A DNA stretch of 11,551 bases from Candidatus Iainarchaeum sp. (GTDB lineage: Archaea > Iainarchaeota > Iainarchaeia > Iainarchaeales > CSSED10-239), in assembly GCA_028693335.1 (NCBI GenBank), contig JAQUVR010000010.1, positions 1 through 11,551 on the forward strand. Direction: 5' to 3'. The notes beneath the pieces are model-generated. The model was not told where the DNA came from and made no database searches. It saw only the letters and a list, made by a program, of their open reading frames with translations. The position numbers and the translations under genes are program-made. This document shows positions 1-11,551 of the stretch, piece by piece. How positions within the stretch are numbered: position 1 is the stretch's first letter; each line of letters begins with the position of its first letter.

Positions 1-354
1 AAAAAAATTGATTTTTTTTTAACAGGTGCAGATGTTATTTTTTCAGATGGATCTGTAATGAACAAAATTGGAACACACACAATTAGCATTGTTGCACAAA
101 ATTTTAAAACTTCGCATATTGTTCTTACAACCACCCATTGTTATGAGACAAATGATCTTTTAAACATACGAGGATTAATAGAAGAAAGAAAAGACACAGA
201 AATTTGGGAAAAAGAAACAAGACCAGAAAATTTGTTATTTAAAAATCCAGCATTTGATATTACACCAAATGAATTAATTGATAAATTTATTACAGAAGTT
301 GGAGTTTTTTCACCAGAAAGTTTTTCAATATGGGCACAAAAAAAAAGGATTTAA
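1..354 (+). CDS. eIF-2B alpha/beta/delta-family sugar-phosphate isomerase (ribose-1,5-bisphosphate isomerase or MTR-1-P isomerase type), C-terminal part; 5' end lies outside the window
   Basis: Frame 1 is open from base 1. Hand translation gives KKIDFFLTGADVIFSDGSVMNKIGT..., which holds the family signature GAD-x-I-x-x-(D/N)G-x-V-x-NKIGT. The later NPAFDITPNELIDKFITEVGVF matches the conserved NPAFDVTP...ITE.G C-terminus. The ATG at 58 in the ORF track is internal. Stop is TAA at 352..354. Confidence 0.7.
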   Translation, partial: KKIDFFLTGADVIFSDGSVMNKIGTHTISIVAQNFKTSHIVLTTTHCYETNDLLNIRGLIEERKDTEIWEKETRPENLLFKNPAFDITPNELIDKFITEVGVFSPESFSIWAQKKRI

Positions 355-364
355 AATTGGTTTT

Positions 365-1999
365 TTAAAAGAAATCTCCTATTCCTTTTTGTTTTGTATT
401 TGTTAATAATTCATCTTTTGTTATATTAAATTCTTCTAAAATTGGCAAAATTGCTGGTAATAGTTGATTATTAATATAATAATTAGAATCATATTCTTTT
501 TCTTTAACAAATTCAGCTAATTTTGCTTTTTGTGAAATAGTTGAGCCATTTTCAGTTATTACATATTCAATTAGTTGACCGGTTTTTATTTTTTTTCCAT
601 TTTCTTTTGCAGAAATTACTGCAGACATAACAGGATTAATTGTCTTATAACTAGAAACGCTTTTTCTTAAAAAAGTTTGAATGATTAATTTATTTATTGG
701 AACATCTTTTTCTTGTAGATCAGATATTACATTTTTTATAAAGACAACTGCTTTTTTTGGATCTTGTTCTTTTAGTATTAATTTTAGTATTTCTTTTTGA
801 GTTTCTTTTACTAAAATACACCAATCACGTCTAACATATTCAAAACCTTTTATTTTTAAATTTTCATTAAAGTCTAAAAGCGCATATTTTTTTTTTGCAG
901 CTTTTTCTTTATCTCTTGACCTCACAAAAATTCCAGACAGATAAATTTCTTCTAATTCTAAATACATTTCTTTTGGCAGATTTTCTGAAATTTTTGAAAT
1001 ATCTTCCATTAATTTATCTAAATTATTAAATTGTATAAAACAAGAATCTGTGTCACCATAAAGAACAGTATATCCTAAATTTTCAAAATCTGTTATCACT
1101 TCTTGGATCTTTGATCTAACCAAATGATACATCATTTCAAGTGCTTGCTTGGAATACCATCTAGATCCAGAAAAACCCATATACCCATAGGTTGATGCCA
1201 AAAGTATTTTTTGAGCATATTGTCTTGCATATAAAGACCTATATTCTTTTGAATTTTTTGAATAAGTCTTCATTTCGTCTTTATTCTTGATTCTTTGAGT
1301 TAATAGTTGATTAACAATTATTGGAACAAAACCCTTCTTATTATTACAAATATAATTTCCTAAAACTGATTTTTTTAAAGAAAGATCAATATCTTTACAA
1401 CAAGAACAATTAATGGTTTCTGGACTTATGTTATATGACATTAAAATAGATATGTGGTAACTTCTAAAATCCAAAACTGCGATATTTTTGTGAATACCAG
1501 CAATTGGTTGTTTTACATATGCACCACTAAAAGAATATTTGTTTCTTTCAATTATTTCTTGTTCTGATGGCCTATTTGGAATAACTAAATTATTTTCTAA
1601 ATAATATTTAATAAACTGCTTTTCAACTAAACTTCCAGCAGCAGAATAAAGAATATCTAAAATTGGCGCATTTAAATAATCCGCCATTTCAACAACTAGA
1701 TCTTGATAGTTTTTTGCAAGATCATATGTTGCAATTACATCATCTAAATTATATTCAATAATTATGTTATAATCATTTTCAAGATATGCTTTTCTCATAT
1801 CTTGAGGTGGTAATGATTTTTTTGTGTTGTTTGTTAATTTTGTATAAATTGTATTTAGATCTAATTTTGGCTGATTAAAGACTTGTAAATAATTCAATTG
1901 TTTTAATATTATATAAACATCAATATGTAATAAATTTTCTAAACTTATTCTCTTACTTGGATTTTTGTGAGAAATTAATGGACTATTAGAAAATAAAAA
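365..1999 (-). CDS. polB: Family B DNA polymerase, portion downstream of the in-frame TAG (Exo III, polymerase domain, C-terminal PIP box)
   Basis: Motifs present: Exo III YNLDDVIATYDL, motif A LDFRSYHIS, motif B KILLASTYG, motif C YGDTDS, KKKYA, EYVRRDW, and C-terminal QKGIGDFF (PIP-like QxxIxxFF). The track start at 1897 is a TTG inside an open frame. Codons 1898..1999 are stop-free, in frame with the upstream ORF, and encode FLFSNSPLISHKNPSKRISLENLLHIDVYIILKQ. Stop is TAA at 365..367. Confidence 0.9.
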   Translation of the reverse strand, partial: FLFSNSPLISHKNPSKRISLENLLHIDVYIILKQLNYLQVFNQPKLDLNTIYTKLTNNTKKSLPPQDMRKAYLENDYNIIIEYNLDDVIATYDLAKNYQDLVVEMADYLNAPILDILYSAAGSLVEKQFIKYYLENNLVIPNRPSEQEIIERNKYSFSGAYVKQPIAGIHKNIAVLDFRSYHISILMSYNISPETINCSCCKDIDLSLKKSVLGNYICNNKKGFVPIIVNQLLTQRIKNKDEMKTYSKNSKEYRSLYARQYAQKILLASTYGYMGFSGSRWYSKQALEMMYHLVRSKIQEVITDFENLGYTVLYGDTDSCFIQFNNLDKLMEDISKISENLPKEMYLELEEIYLSGIFVRSRDKEKAAKKKYALLDFNENLKIKGFEYVRRDWCILVKETQKEILKLILKEQDPKKAVVFIKNVISDLQEKDVPINKLIIQTFLRKSVSSYKTINPVMSAVISAKENGKKIKTGQLIEYVITENGSTISQKAKLAEFVKEKEYDSNYYINNQLLPAILPILEEFNITKDELLTNTKQKGIGDFF

Positions 2000-2002
2000 C
2001 TA
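2000..2002 (-). other. In-frame TAG codon inside polB (candidate recoding or readthrough site, nonsense mutation, or sequencing error)
   Basis: The plus strand reads cta, so the minus strand reads TAG. It is flanked on both sides by an open, homologous PolB reading frame, between Exo II and Exo III. Confidence 0.85.
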
Positions 2003-2827
2003 TTTTTTTGTGTGGGAAATATATGCTTTTTGAAGATAATCAAAATCAAAAACGCCATTGTAAGTATAAATAATATCTGGATCTTCTTTTTCTACAAAAT
2101 CCAAAAATCCATTTATTAGATCCAATTCATTTTCATAGAATTGTACTTTTGTTTTTTCAAGAGAATATTTTTCTTTTTCCTTAATATCTAATGATTTCTC
2201 TAAAAGAAAAAAAACATTTTTATTAAGATATTGATCCATATAACTAATAGAAATAATTTTGTCTTTACCTGGTGTTGGAAAAGCTAAATTTTTTGAAACT
2301 AAAACTTCTATATCAAAACAGCCAGTATTTAGTTTTTGCAAATCTGTTTTGCCAAGATCAATAATAGAATCAATTTCATTATTTTCATTTAAATAAAATT
2401 CAACTAATCTAAAATTAGATAAGTCATTGTCTAAAAAAAATCTATAAATAAATGGAATATCAAATTCATAGATTTTATAATTAATATTTAAATTAATCTC
2501 TGAACCTAATAATTTTTGTCTGACTGATACTAGTTCAGAAACAGAATTAAAAACACATTTATAACAAAATCTTAAATTATTTTTTTCAATTTTTTCAAAT
2601 TGTTTTAAAGATAAACAATCTTTGATCTGTTCTTGATTATCTTTACTTAATTCGCTTTGCGTCGCTAAATAAAAATAAGGATAAAAATTAACAACAAAAA
2701 TTTTTTTTTTATTATCAACTTTTAGGGTGCAAAACAGTTTATCGTTTTTATAAAAAGAATTAATTAATATTCCTTGTTTTTTGGTTTTGCAATCAGTAAT
2801 CTTTTCTTTTTTAAATAAATTTAACAT
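2000..2827 (-). CDS. polB: Family B DNA polymerase, N-terminal domain plus Exo I and Exo II, ending at an in-frame TAG
   Basis: Exo I is GCFDIEV and Exo II is YNGVFDFDYL. ATG at 2825..2827. The ORF ends ...HTKK-TAG (2000..2002) and is in the same frame as ORF 365..1897 (2827-1897 = 930 nt = 310 codons). Confidence 0.9.
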   Translation of the reverse strand: MLNLFKKEKITDCKTKKQGILINSFYKNDKLFCTLKVDNKKKIFVVNFYPYFYLATQSELSKDNQEQIKDCLSLKQFEKIEKNNLRFCYKCVFNSVSELVSVRQKLLGSEINLNINYKIYEFDIPFIYRFFLDNDLSNFRLVEFYLNENNEIDSIIDLGKTDLQKLNTGCFDIEVLVSKNLAFPTPGKDKIISISYMDQYLNKNVFFLLEKSLDIKEKEKYSLEKTKVQFYENELDLINGFLDFVEKEDPDIIYTYNGVFDFDYLQKAYISHTKK

Positions 2828-3622: not shown

Positions 3623-4702
3623 ATGGAAAAAAAACAAGTATTTTCTAAACCATTTAATTTAGTTTATGAAAAAGATTATCCAAATCTATTTATAGGACCA
3701 GGAATTTTCTCAAACTATGATCTTGCAAAAAATTATTCTCCTAATGATTGGATTAATAAAAAAACAACAGATATAGAAAAATACAGATCAAAACAAATAT
3801 TTTCATTTAAATCTGTTCACAAAGAAGATACCAGAAACCCAAATAAAGAATTACAAGAATTACAATTACTTGCGCAATCAACAAAAACAACAGAATTGGA
3901 AATTGATTTAGAAAAAACACCAAAAATGATTAAAGAAAAAATAAGTGGAATTAATAATTTTTCTTATGAATTAGAAAATATAAAAATTATAGATAATATA
4001 AAAATACCAAAAATCATTGATAAAGTTGTAACAGATACAGATCTTAAAGCAAGAGAAGGAATTATTAATCTTAATAAAAAATTACAAGATGTTTATAAAA
4101 TAGAACAAATATTGTCTGCAGGGTTACTTGGTCAAAAAAATAAACGAATTTTAGTACCTACAAGATGGGCAATTACTTCTGTTGATGACATTGTTTCTAA
4201 AGATATTGTAAATAACATAAAAAGTAATCCATTGATTGATAAATATCTGGTTTTTTGTTATGAATTTTATAATAATAAATTTTATATTTTATTTATTCCT
4301 AGAAACTGGGGATTTGAACAAATAGAAGAACAAAACAATTCTTTTTGTATAGATTATGAAATTAATGAACCCAGAAAGATCTATGCTGACTCTGTTACTG
4401 GCGCTTATTATGCGTCAAGATTAGAAGTTGGGAAATATTTAGATAAAATAAAAAAACAAGCTACAGTAATTGTTTTTAGAGAAATAGAGCAAAGTTATTT
4501 TTCTAAAGGTGTTTGGGTAATAAGAGAAGCAGTGAGATTAGCATTAGAAAATGAGCCATTTATTTTTGAAGATCTAGAATCTAGTCTTAATTTTATTGAT
4601 TCTTTAGGCATTAGAAATGGTATTAATTATTGGAAAGAAAAATCATTTATATTAAAAGAAATTAAATGTCAAAAAAGATTATGTGATTTTTTTAAAACAT
4701 AA
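3623..4702 (+). CDS. Nre-like (DUF650/DUF651, COG1602-type) putative DNA-repair factor with C-terminal PCNA-interacting peptide
   Basis: The C-terminus ...CQKRLCDFFKT contains a canonical PIP box QxxLxxFF (4670..4693). DYPNLFIGPG and ILVPTRWAITSVDD resemble, from my memory, the conserved gYPxvxvGP and PTRWsITavD blocks of archaeal Nre proteins. An in-frame TAA at 3617..3619 rules out an N-terminal extension. The family assignment rests on recall, not on a search. Confidence 0.5.
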   Translation: MEKKQVFSKPFNLVYEKDYPNLFIGPGIFSNYDLAKNYSPNDWINKKTTDIEKYRSKQIFSFKSVHKEDTRNPNKELQELQLLAQSTKTTELEIDLEKTPKMIKEKISGINNFSYELENIKIIDNIKIPKIIDKVVTDTDLKAREGIINLNKKLQDVYKIEQILSAGLLGQKNKRILVPTRWAITSVDDIVSKDIVNNIKSNPLIDKYLVFCYEFYNNKFYILFIPRNWGFEQIEEQNNSFCIDYEINEPRKIYADSVTGAYYASRLEVGKYLDKIKKQATVIVFREIEQSYFSKGVWVIREAVRLALENEPFIFEDLESSLNFIDSLGIRNGINYWKEKSFILKEIKCQKRLCDFFKT

Positions 4703-7865: not shown

Positions 7866-7884
7866 AAAAAAAAGTAATATAAAA
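7866..7884 (-). terminator. Oligo-T tracts immediately 3' of the 5S rRNA (candidate archaeal intrinsic terminator)
   Basis: The minus strand directly after the 5S 3' end reads TTTTATATTACTTTTTTTT (T4, then T8). Archaeal RNAP terminates at oligo-T runs, but such runs are common in this AT-rich DNA. Confidence 0.35.
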
Positions 7885-8000
7885 GTTAGCAACTGAATTG
7901 CAGCTCCAAGAAAGAACTTAGGGCCAACAACAACGGTGACAATCTTAACTTCTGGGTTCGGAAAGGGTCCAGGTGTTTCCTTGTCCCTATGATCGCTAAC
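7885..8000 (-). rRNA. 5S ribosomal RNA (about 116 nt), stand-alone
   Basis: This is the only GC-enriched island in the window. Minus-strand sequence: GTTAGCGATCATAGGGACAAGGAAACACCTGGACCCTTTCCGAACCCAGAAGTTAAGATTGTCACCGTTGTTGTTGGCCCTAAGTTCTTTCTTGGAGCTGCAATTCAGTTGCTAAC. The termini pair (GTTAGC/GCTAAC, helix I). GACAA/TTGTC fits helix II and CTGG/CCAG fits helix III. The universal CCGAACCCAGAAGTTAAG loop C/helix III signature is present, and CTAAG/CTTGG forms a terminal hairpin. End coordinates are accurate to a few nt. Confidence 0.88.
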
Positions 8001-8024
8001 AATATAATTATGAAAGATAAGGTT

Positions 8025-8034
8025 TTTAAATAAA
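8025..8034 (-). promoter_or_regulatory. Candidate TATA box for the 5S rRNA gene
   Basis: The minus strand reads ...ACGATTTATTTAAAAACC.... The TTTATTTAAA element is centred about 29-30 nt upstream of the proposed 5S 5' end at 8000, the expected archaeal TATA-to-TSS spacing. AT-rich background lowers specificity. Confidence 0.4.
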
Positions 8035-8063
8035 TCGTTAAACCCAATTTATCTAAGAAAAAC

Positions 8064-8609
8064 TTACTTTTTCTCCTTTGCACCAGAGATGACTTTCTTT
8101 AATTTATTTAATCCTTTTACAATGTCTTCTTCTGATTTTGCACCAGCACAAATTAATTTTCCATTCTTAAATAACAACATAGTTAATTTTGGATTAAATA
8201 ATCTTACAATTGCACCAGGGAATTGCTCTGGCTCATATTCAATATTATCTAATGTTACTGCTGCATTAAAAAGATCTATCTGCTTATTTAAACTAGATGT
8301 TGCTACTAAGTTTACAATTTTATAACTAACTCTTTCTTTAATTGTTACGTTCTTTTGAACTTCGTTAATAATTTTTGTTGCTTTTTTTATTGCAGCTTTA
8401 ATATCTTTTTCACTAGATGCTCCAGAAATAATTATATTTCCATTCTTAAATAATAACAAAGATACCTTTGGTTCAGCCATTTTTAAAATAGCACCTGGAA
8501 ATTGTTCTGGTTCATACTCCACTTCAGGTATTGCTGTTGCTAAATTGTATAAATCTAAATTTGCCCCTAAACTACTTGATGCAACTAAATTTACTATCTT
8601 ATAATCCAT
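8064..8609 (-). CDS. tbp: TATA-box binding protein (TBP)
   Basis: 181 aa with two tandem TBP repeats. Each carries IVNLVA(S/T)SSL...EYEPEQFPGAI...LLFKNG...(S/A)GA(S/K)SE(K/E)DI. ATG at 8607..8609 and TAA stop at 8064..8066. Confidence 0.95.
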   Translation of the reverse strand: MDYKIVNLVASSSLGANLDLYNLATAIPEVEYEPEQFPGAILKMAEPKVSLLLFKNGNIIISGASSEKDIKAAIKKATKIINEVQKNVTIKERVSYKIVNLVATSSLNKQIDLFNAAVTLDNIEYEPEQFPGAIVRLFNPKLTMLLFKNGKLICAGAKSEEDIVKGLNKLKKVISGAKEKK

Positions 8610-8921: not shown

Positions 8922-9242
8922 ATGGCAAACAAAAAAGCAAAAGGAAAAAGATCATTAACAAGAAGTAGATATAGAAGAAATGTAAGAGACAAAACAACAG
9001 TAAATGAAATGATAAAACCAATAAAGGTAGATGATGTTGTACAAATAAATGCAAACAGCTCTGTACACAATGGATTACCACATAGAAGAGTTGATGGGAT
9101 TACTGGAAAAGTAATTGGATTCCAAGGAAATTGTCCTATAGTTCAATTAAAAGATGGTAATAAATCCAAAAAAATAATAACACACAGAATACATTTGAAA
9201 TTATTAAAACAGATTGCAAAAGGTGGAAAAAATGCAGAATAA
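8922..9242 (+). CDS. rpl21e: Large-subunit ribosomal protein L21e
   Basis: Basic N-terminus KGKRSLTRSRYRR. The SH3-like core VDDVVQINANSSVHNGLPHRRVDGITGKVIG...HRIHL matches the L21e pattern (GD.V.I..d.s...GmPh..yhGkTG.V). Size is about 106 aa, and it heads the conserved rpl21e-rpoF cluster. Confidence 0.88.
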   Translation: MANKKAKGKRSLTRSRYRRNVRDKTTVNEMIKPIKVDDVVQINANSSVHNGLPHRRVDGITGKVIGFQGNCPIVQLKDGNKSKKIITHRIHLKLLKQIAKGGKNAE

Positions 9243-9567
9243 TGCAACATATGTCGAAGATGTTTCACTAACAGAGATAAAAAAAGTGTTATCTGAAAAA
9301 TCTAAAGAAAAAGAACTTAATTACGAACAAAAGATGGCATATGAACACGCAAAACAATTTGCAAAATTAACTATTGCAAAAGCAGAGAAATTAAAAAAAG
9401 AGCTTTTAGAAATAGAAGATATAACCGATGAAGTTGCAACAAAAATTGTTGATATTCTACCTAATCAAATAGAACTAGATTTAATATCTGAAAAAAATAA
9501 ATGTATCAATGACGACAACAAACAAAAAATATTAGATTTAGTAAGCAAATATAAAAAAGAAGAATAA
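9232..9567 (+). CDS. rpoF: DNA-directed RNA polymerase subunit Rpo4/F
   Basis: Small acidic/helical protein (...NYEQKMAYEHAKQFAKLTIAKAEKLKKELLEIEDITDEVATKIVDILPNQIELDLI...) matching the Rpo4/RpoF pattern, in the conserved position after rpl21e. I prefer the ATG at 9232, preceded by AGGTGG at 9221..9226, over the track's TTG at 9214. It overlaps the rpl21e 3' end by 11 nt. Confidence 0.72.
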   Translation: MQNNATYVEDVSLTEIKKVLSEKSKEKELNYEQKMAYEHAKQFAKLTIAKAEKLKKELLEIEDITDEVATKIVDILPNQIELDLISEKNKCINDDNKQKILDLVSKYKKEE

Positions 9568-9572
9568 AGAAT

Positions 9573-10106
9573 ATGTTTTCACAAATAAAAAAAGAAGCGA
9601 TTGTGCTGGATAAAACAACCAGAGAGATACAATTCAAACAAACAGTAGCAATACAATGCATCGGCACATCAAATTTTTCTTTATTGGAAGTATATAGTGA
9701 TATGCCAGTAAAAATACAAGACACTATAACAACAGAAGACGTTGTTGTTAAAAGAATAACATACGAAAAACTGACAACAATTGCAAAAAACGAATTAGAA
9801 AAAACAATAGAAAATATTGTTAAGAATAACACAGATAAATTCGTAACCTTTTTCAACACAGCAAGACCAATTGGAGTTAGAAGACATCAATTGGATTTAT
9901 TACCAATGATTGGTAAAAAACACAGACTAGCAATACTAAATTATTTAGAAAAAAATGGCCCATTTAAAAGTTTAGATGATCTTAAAAACATAGAAATGTT
10001 ACCAGATCCAATAAAAATAATTACAAACAGAATAATGGAAGAAATTTTAAATGGAGATACAGAAAAATATCACCTATTTACAATGCCATTTATCAAAAAA
10101 CAATAA
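9573..10106 (+). CDS. DUF655/COG1491-type predicted nucleic-acid-binding protein (OB-fold plus helix-hairpin-helix)
   Basis: FFNTARPIGVRRHQLDLLPMIGKKHRLAILNYLEKNGPFKSLDDL matches the remembered FFN.A.PI..R.H.LELLPGIGKK signature. Its position between rpoF and ksgA is the conserved archaeal neighbourhood for this family. Confidence 0.6.
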   Translation: MFSQIKKEAIVLDKTTREIQFKQTVAIQCIGTSNFSLLEVYSDMPVKIQDTITTEDVVVKRITYEKLTTIAKNELEKTIENIVKNNTDKFVTFFNTARPIGVRRHQLDLLPMIGKKHRLAILNYLEKNGPFKSLDDLKNIEMLPDPIKIITNRIMEEILNGDTEKYHLFTMPFIKKQ

Positions 10107-10924: not shown

Positions 10925-11551
10925 CTAATTCATCTCTTCCAAAATCATTCTTTCAATTTGAATTAAATCCTTAAGATTTGCATTTGCAAATTCTATTGCT
11001 TGATCTAATTTATCTGGATTATTTGCATAAATCTCAAATATAGGATCTCCAACTTTCAATTCATCACCAGTTTCACAAAAAAGAATTAATCCTGCTTCTT
11101 TATCAAATGGAGCACCAGCAAGTCTTGCTATTTTTGTTAATAAAGCAACATCCATATCAACAATTTTTCCAAGAGATTTATTAATTATTATATGCTTATT
11201 TTTTGCAATTGGCACATCCTCTGAACAAAATATATTGCCATCTTGTGCTTTAATTATTTCTTTAAATTTTTCTAAGGCTTTGCCAGATTTAATGGTTTCT
11301 CTTGCAAGATTATACCCTTCGCCTTCTTTAGTTTTACCAACAAGATCAAATAATTTACCTGCAATCTCACATGCTTTTTCTGCAAGATTATCAAAATATT
11401 TACCCTCTAAGATTTCTAATGCGGCTTTTGCTTCTAGAGCTGCACCAAATGATTTTCCACAAGGAACTTCTCCATTAGTTAAAACTATTCTAGCCTTTAT
11501 TCCTAATTCTTTACTAATTACTAAGAATTTCTTTGCCCATTTTTCAGCATC
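10925..11551 (-). CDS. deoA: AMP phosphorylase / thymidine phosphorylase-family protein, C-terminal part; 5' end outside the window
   Basis: The frame stays open from 11215 to the window edge at 11551. Hand translation gives DAEKWAKKFLVISKELGIKARIVLTNGEVPCGKSFGAALEAKAALEILEG...SGKALEKFKEIIKAQDG...VGDPIFEIYAN..., typical of the central and C-terminal domains of pyrimidine-nucleoside/AMP phosphorylases. The track's start at 11215 is an internal GTG. This is the only gene in the window that terminates with TAG (10925..10927). Confidence 0.75.
   Translation of the reverse strand, partial: DAEKWAKKFLVISKELGIKARIVLTNGEVPCGKSFGAALEAKAALEILEGKYFDNLAEKACEIAGKLFDLVGKTKEGEGYNLARETIKSGKALEKFKEIIKAQDGNIFCSEDVPIAKNKHIIINKSLGKIVDMDVALLTKIARLAGAPFDKEAGLILFCETGDELKVGDPIFEIYANNPDKLDQAIEFANANLKDLIQIERMILEEMN

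Follow-up and report, generated by a model that had tools for sequence, protein, structure and literature searches.

Why should a family B DNA polymerase gene that is otherwise intact carry a single TAG in the middle of its exonuclease domain? Does the organism read TAG as a sense codon, does it assemble its polymerase from two chains, or is the gene, or its assembled sequence, simply broken? The locus lies on a stretch of 11,551 bp, here called the window, which is a complete contig of an NCBI metagenome-assembled genome (MAG) and on which PGAP deposited polB as two CDSs. The MAG is filed as "Candidatus ainarchaeum sp.", which we take to mean Iainarchaeum (Iainarchaeota, formerly Diapherotrites, one of the DPANN archaea). 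An earlier note, made from the sequence alone, had weighed stop-codon recoding or readthrough against a very recent nonsense mutation or an assembly error, and had predicted that automated annotation would report a split polB, as the NCBI record indeed does. Our analysis sides with the second pair of options and against the first: the TAG is an ordinary private nonsense codon or error in polB, and neither a recoding event nor a new kind of split polymerase. We favor, with a probability of about 0.5, a very recent, strain-private GAG (Glu) to TAG nonsense allele at codon 276, which would cause loss of function in a gene otherwise maintained by selection.

Translation of the minus strand gives a single frame of 820 codons plus TAA, with one internal stop and no frameshift, and the ORFs 2000..2827 (275 aa, ATG start) and 365..1897 (510 aa, TTG start) both lie in it. 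Open stretches of 275 and 544 codons do not arise by chance in DNA of about 25% GC, and both halves must therefore code for protein. The domain content is that of a family B polymerase: the Pfam exonuclease model PF03104 matches the N-terminal fragment (E = 4e-22), reaching only position 177 of its 242 positions, the polymerase model PF00136 matches the C-terminal fragment (E = 1e-52), and the best PDB matches are the PolB enzymes of Pyrococcus and Thermococcus (Thermococcales). Exo I (FDIEV), Exo II (YNGVFDFDYL), Exo III (YNLDDVIATYDL), motifs A, B and C, YGDTDS, KKKYA and VRRDW are all present in the translation, and FDIEV, YNGxxFDxxYL, YNLDDxxATxxL, KILLASTYGYMG and YGDTDS were found in consensus form; the C-terminal QKGIGDFF fits the PIP consensus Qxx[ILM]xx[FY][FY]. 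What sets the gene apart from its relatives, which are intact at 820 aa, is the TAG at codon 276. It lies in the context ACA AAA AAA TAG TTT TTA, between Exo II and Exo III and near residue 229 of Pfu PolB in an alignment to the Pyrococcus enzyme. The 34 codons that follow it correspond to about residues 230-265 of Pfu PolB, and HMMER aligned their LLHIDVY to RIHFDLY of Pyrococcus PolB, a pairing that the earlier note had proposed for the HIDVY element. MDD3244688.1 and MDD3244687.1 are therefore one broken polB and not two proteins, and their annotation as separate products misrepresents a single interrupted gene. The coordinates are collected in Table 1.

Table 1. Features of the polB locus and of the stop codons discussed in the text (window coordinates).
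Feature	Position	Strand	Basis or remark
Family B DNA polymerase gene polB	365..2827	-	Translation, Pfam, intact 820-aa orthologs, structure matches
N-terminal fragment, 275 aa, MDD3244688.1 "3'-5' exonuclease"	2003..2827	-	N-terminal domain, Exo I and Exo II only
In-frame TAG, codon 276, exonuclease domain	2000..2002 (TAG read 2002..2000)	-	Private G to T at 2002 (C to A on the plus strand)
34 open codons, FLFSNSPL...HIDVYIILKQ, in no annotated CDS	1898..1999	-	Conserved exonuclease-domain coding sequence
C-terminal fragment, 510 aa, TTG start, MDD3244687.1 "DNA polymerase domain-containing protein"	365..1897	-	Exo III and the whole polymerase domain
Strain-private patch, 256 nt, polB codons 270-355	1764..2019	-	14 of 31 private substitutions, including the TAG near one end
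Terminal TAG of the AMP phosphorylase-like gene	10925..10927	-	Also TAG in L008 and L001; genuine terminator

A separate feature of this polymerase concerns motif A (window 1450..1476, LDFRSYHIS), which reads DFRSYHIS where Thermococcales PolB has DFRSLYPS. A His thus occupies the position of the steric-gate Tyr and a Tyr that of the preceding Leu. The deviation is lineage-wide, the His and its flanking Ser residues being nearly invariant among 49 aligned orthologs, and it could alter sugar discrimination throughout the clade.

The origin of the TAG becomes clear when close relatives are considered. Nine loci (L001-L009) from Logan, ENA, JGI and NCBI assemblies, representing at least 7 samples, are collinear with the window at 97.2-98.9% nucleotide identity; the closest of them is L008 (GCA_030154545.1). 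Orthologs from a protein search are intact, 820 aa long and 96-98% identical at the protein level. All nine loci carry GAG (Glu) at codon 276 with identical flanks, reading ACAAAAAAAGAGTTTTTATTT where the window reads ACAAAAAAATAGTTTTTATTT, that is, ACAAAAAAA-GAG-TTTTTATTT in the relatives against ACAAAAAAA-TAG-TTTTTATTT in the window. The 102 nt after the TAG (1999..1898, codons 277-310) are 100% identical to L008, L005 and L001, which bears out the proposal that this stretch is coding sequence and not spacer. Further away, an outgroup locus at 74% identity (L011) has GAT at codon 276, and the column is mostly Glu or Asp in 43 more distant orthologs. Given GAG and identical flanks in every one of the nine relatives, the TAG is one G-to-T transversion private to the window contig among the sequences compared. 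Among about 15 billion collected proteins the allele was seen a single time; a scan of JGI metagenomes with a pattern degenerate at the site gave one contig only, with the GAG allele and no second TAG, and a scan of representative genome contigs returned only L011, the species itself not being represented there. One of the related contigs has an irregularity of its own: the first 117 nt (1..117) of JGI contig Ga0172378_10052552 (L005/L010) are unrelated to polB and join it at about codon 199, because of which its polB is called as only 586 aa. Either the assembly is chimeric at this junction or the sample truly contains a rearrangement.

If the TAG is private, is it a property of the strain or of the assembly? 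The other private differences bear on this question. Relative to six distinct relatives, 31 substitutions are found only in the window, and 14 of these (45%) fall within the 256-nt patch of Table 1, their density rising along it from 2 to 3 to 9. The changes in the patch comprise N270I, E276*, three synonymous changes in LNYLQVF, T346K, LNGD to LEND, K354N and K355I, of which LNGD to LEND would also follow from a 3-nt insertion compensated by a 3-nt deletion. In polB as a whole, 5 private nucleotide changes are synonymous and 12 are non-synonymous, the latter spread over 9 codons, and since the gene is unremarkable outside the patch, this non-synonymous excess is local. The 11 other genes of the window (about 9 kb) have the same lengths as in the relatives and show 12 synonymous private changes and 1 non-synonymous one.

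The patch does not look like random damage. All eight private missense sites of polB fall at variable alignment columns (P of about 0.018 for random sites), while in the conserved, invariant LNYLQVF block all three private changes are synonymous. This pattern indicates purifying selection on polB until about the time of the TAG, and the gene looks to have been functional until very recently. We consider the patch probably to be a real, selection-filtered divergent haplotype that was acquired from an unsampled strain through recombination; on that reading the TAG is the sole disabling change and hence very young. Exchange of this kind is also indicated by codons 333-341 (window about 1805..1831), where the nucleotide states of the window match L002 and L003 and not its closest relatives L008 and L005, which points to recombination among co-existing strains of the species. 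Two other origins for the patch were tried and rejected. Import from the clade at 74-77% identity fails because the private states, which are derived relative to the 74% outgroup, do not match L011, and mutagenesis of the diversity-generating retroelement (DGR) type fails because the changes are not adenine-specific.

The strongest competitor of a real allele is an artefact of assembly or consensus calling, in which the organism's polB would be intact with GAG and the T at 2002 would be a base-call error, the product of a poorly bridged low-coverage stretch, or a chimeric strain path in the assembly graph. This possibility has to be taken seriously, even if we hold it only tentatively. All other members of the species that have been sampled carry GAG, the allele disables a conserved gene, and that gene otherwise looks fully functional. 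The TAG sits inside a stretch about as long as one long read or read pair that holds nearly half of the private substitutions, and this unusual clustering could speak against the allele and mark a locally unreliable or chimeric piece of assembly. Low coverage does occur in related contigs, L004 being recorded at 4.5x. Changes of the type G to T or C to A are moreover a typical artefact of oxidative damage. To this is added that the TAG haplotype was seen once in very large collections, without independent confirmation, and that a deleterious allele is somewhat unlikely as the consensus of a population.

The remainder of the contig argues the other way. All indels relative to the relatives are intergenic, with none in coding sequence, and not one of 54 homopolymer runs of at least 7 bases disturbs a reading frame; both observations favor an accurate assembly. 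Outside polB, the 12:1 ratio of synonymous to non-synonymous private changes indicates that the base calls behave like real, selection-filtered variation. Within the patch, random noise should give about 75% non-synonymous changes regardless of conservation, whereas missense changes are confined to variable columns and the conserved block is spared; the compensated reading of LNGD to LEND likewise fits poorly with noise. Weighing both sides, we hold it somewhat more likely that the base at 2002 is real than that it is a consensus error.

But what about the reading that made the locus attractive in the first place, namely that TAG is translated? A suppressor tRNA, pyrrolysine or a reassigned code would yield full-length PolB in this strain, and the idea draws on the kept frame, the otherwise intact gene and the rarity of TAG in the window, where a recount agrees with the 11 TAA, 1 TAG and 0 TGA given in the earlier note. 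Readthrough of the single terminal TAG would add 7 codons before the next in-frame stop, as the note had also stated. The 23 called genes of L008 end in 15 TAA, 4 TAG and 4 TGA and contain no internal stops, so that TAG terminates 17% of the neighboring genes, namely those for thioredoxin, AMP phosphorylase, SecE and a 328-aa protein. In L011 the ends of the orthologs are the same or nearly so: there is no shift for thioredoxin and SecE, AMP phosphorylase stops one residue further on, with TAA, and the end of the 328-aa protein differs by no more than about 3 residues; TAA is the stop in three of these four orthologs. The AMP phosphorylase-like gene of the window ends in the same TAG as its counterparts in L008 and L001. 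In-frame TAGs do not recur, either in the 11 other genes of the window's 11.5 kb or in about 22 kb of each relative, and a tRNA was found neither in the window nor in seven related loci. These gene ends show that the lineage uses TAG in the ordinary way, as a stop.

Codon 276 itself offers no hint of a sense TAG, since relatives of up to 98.9% nucleotide identity have neither a TAG there nor any residue other than the Glu of GAG, and L011 has GAT. Since the other members of the species terminate genes with TAG and have GAG at codon 276, recoding would be confined to one strain, which excludes it for practical purposes; we know of no precedent for a code change limited to one strain of a species. 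Two checks suggested by the earlier note, the codon in close relatives and the use of TAG elsewhere in the window and the related loci, both went against recoding, which we regard as very improbable. TAG reassignment is known from methanogenic archaea that decode pyrrolysine and from TAG-recoded phages (code 15). These systems share with the window an in-frame TAG in an otherwise intact gene, but in them in-frame TAGs are numerous, TAG is avoided at gene ends and a tRNA with a CUA anticodon is encoded, whereas the window has one such TAG, a neighborhood in which TAG is in regular use as a terminator, and an orthologous GAG.

A functional two-subunit PolB, in which the 275-aa and roughly 510-aa products are made separately and then assembled into an active enzyme, is less probable still. 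The two CDSs annotated by PGAP speak for it, as does the existence of split archaeal PolBs: the Methanothermobacter PolB, among the Methanobacteriales, is encoded by two genes and that of Nanoarchaeum equitans is a split-intein protein, and in both cases PolB comes, as here, in two consecutive pieces. Those splits, however, are conserved in their lineages and have proper starts or intein halves. The split in the window is private to one contig, is shared by none of the relatives and cuts through the exonuclease domain instead of separating two domains, so that the fragments do not correspond to complete domains. At the break, Pfam gives only the two PolB domains and neither an intein nor a Hint domain; some distant polB homologs carry inteins (PF14890, PF14528), although not at this locus. 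A credible second start is also lacking. The TTG at 1897 is preceded by no SD-like motif, and its use would drop the 34 conserved codons with the HIDVY strand; the first in-frame ATG, codon 344 (window 1798), lies 33 codons past the TTG and is likewise without an SD-like motif, whereas several other genes of the window do have one. The earlier note's observations on these starts, and its view that a two-gene split is poorly supported, are borne out.

The TAG is directly preceded by A AAA AAA, a heptamer that fits the slippery pattern X XXY YYZ perfectly, but programmed frameshifting there has next to no probability. The frames themselves rule it out: what follows the TAG is coded in the frame that precedes it and needs no shift, TAA closes the -1 frame after 7 codons and the +1 frame after 8, and the heptamer is also present in the relatives that carry GAG. 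Recoding, a functional split and frameshifting hold little probability even when combined, and a small remainder we assign to no explanation.

What would the favored nonsense allele mean for the cell? If the base is real, translation would stop after 275 residues, giving a product with the N-terminal domain, Exo I and Exo II, and the remaining 544 codons, with Exo III and the whole polymerase domain, would not be made, bar possible traces from leaky readthrough or reinitiation. Such an allele would most likely be null. It could be tolerable, at least for a time, because archaea other than Crenarchaeota normally replicate with PolD. Outside Crenarchaeota and Marsarchaeota the main replicase is PolD, which is also found in DPANN archaea (PMC7544198, PMC6355029). 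In Thermococcus kodakarensis, PolB is not required for replication, according to work cited in these two papers (PMC7544198, PMC6355029), whereas in Halobacterium PolB is reported to be essential (PMC7544198). Dispensability as in T. kodakarensis would explain how a polB null allele persists in a non-crenarchaeal archaeon; the T. kodakarensis case is, however, experimental and comes from a euryarchaeon, while for the genome of the window we infer the presence of PolD, the literature on PolD in Diapherotrites giving general statements only. There is a very small chance that the TAG is both real and fixed, with readthrough at a useful rate, for example by a newly acquired suppressor tRNA, or, in a milder form, with a natural PolB-null strain living on PolD alone.

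In all essentials, the locus resembles any nonsense-interrupted gene in a MAG: one substitution turns a sense codon into a stop, the relatives are intact, and two adjacent CDSs in the same frame are annotated. The position of the stop at the edge of a 256-nt private cluster is its sole oddity. The biological weight of the case is accordingly very small, as it amounts to one more interrupted gene. Its practical lesson is that an in-frame stop in a conserved gene should be judged against near-identical relatives before recoding is considered. Should the allele prove true as the majority state, nature would have given a small indication that an Iainarchaeota-like DPANN archaeon can do without PolB.

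Finally, we would like to describe the surroundings of polB. The window encodes TBP, ribosomal protein L21e, Rpo4, a DUF655 protein, KsgA, AglB, a GT4 glycosyltransferase, an Nre-family protein, an IF-2B-family protein and an AMP phosphorylase-like protein in addition to polB and a stand-alone 5S rRNA, a gene set that marks it as archaeal. The Nre_N/Nre_C protein (3623..4702) ends in QKRLCDFF (4670..4693, plus strand), a canonical PIP-box pattern like the QKGIGDFF of polB, and these two PCNA-client genes lie about 800 bp apart in divergent orientation with one membrane-protein gene between them. The contig ends hold an IF-2B-family (ribose-1,5-bisphosphate isomerase-like) gene at 1..354 (plus strand) and the AMP phosphorylase-like gene at 10925..11551 (minus strand); about 10 kb apart, these are both components of the archaeal AMP or pentose-bisphosphate salvage pathway. 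The 5S rRNA gene (7884..8000, minus strand; Rfam, 63.8 bits) stands between aglB and the gene for TBP, and neither a 16S nor a 23S rRNA gene is close by; the mechanical ORF 7886..8083 that overlaps it is spurious, as is probably the antisense ORF 9506..9859. The mechanical ORF for Rpo4 (9214..9567, plus strand) begins at the TTG at 9214 and gives 117 aa, whereas the calls in the relatives give 111 aa from an ATG at 9232, a start that gives Rpo4 an overlap of 11 nt with the end of the L21e gene.
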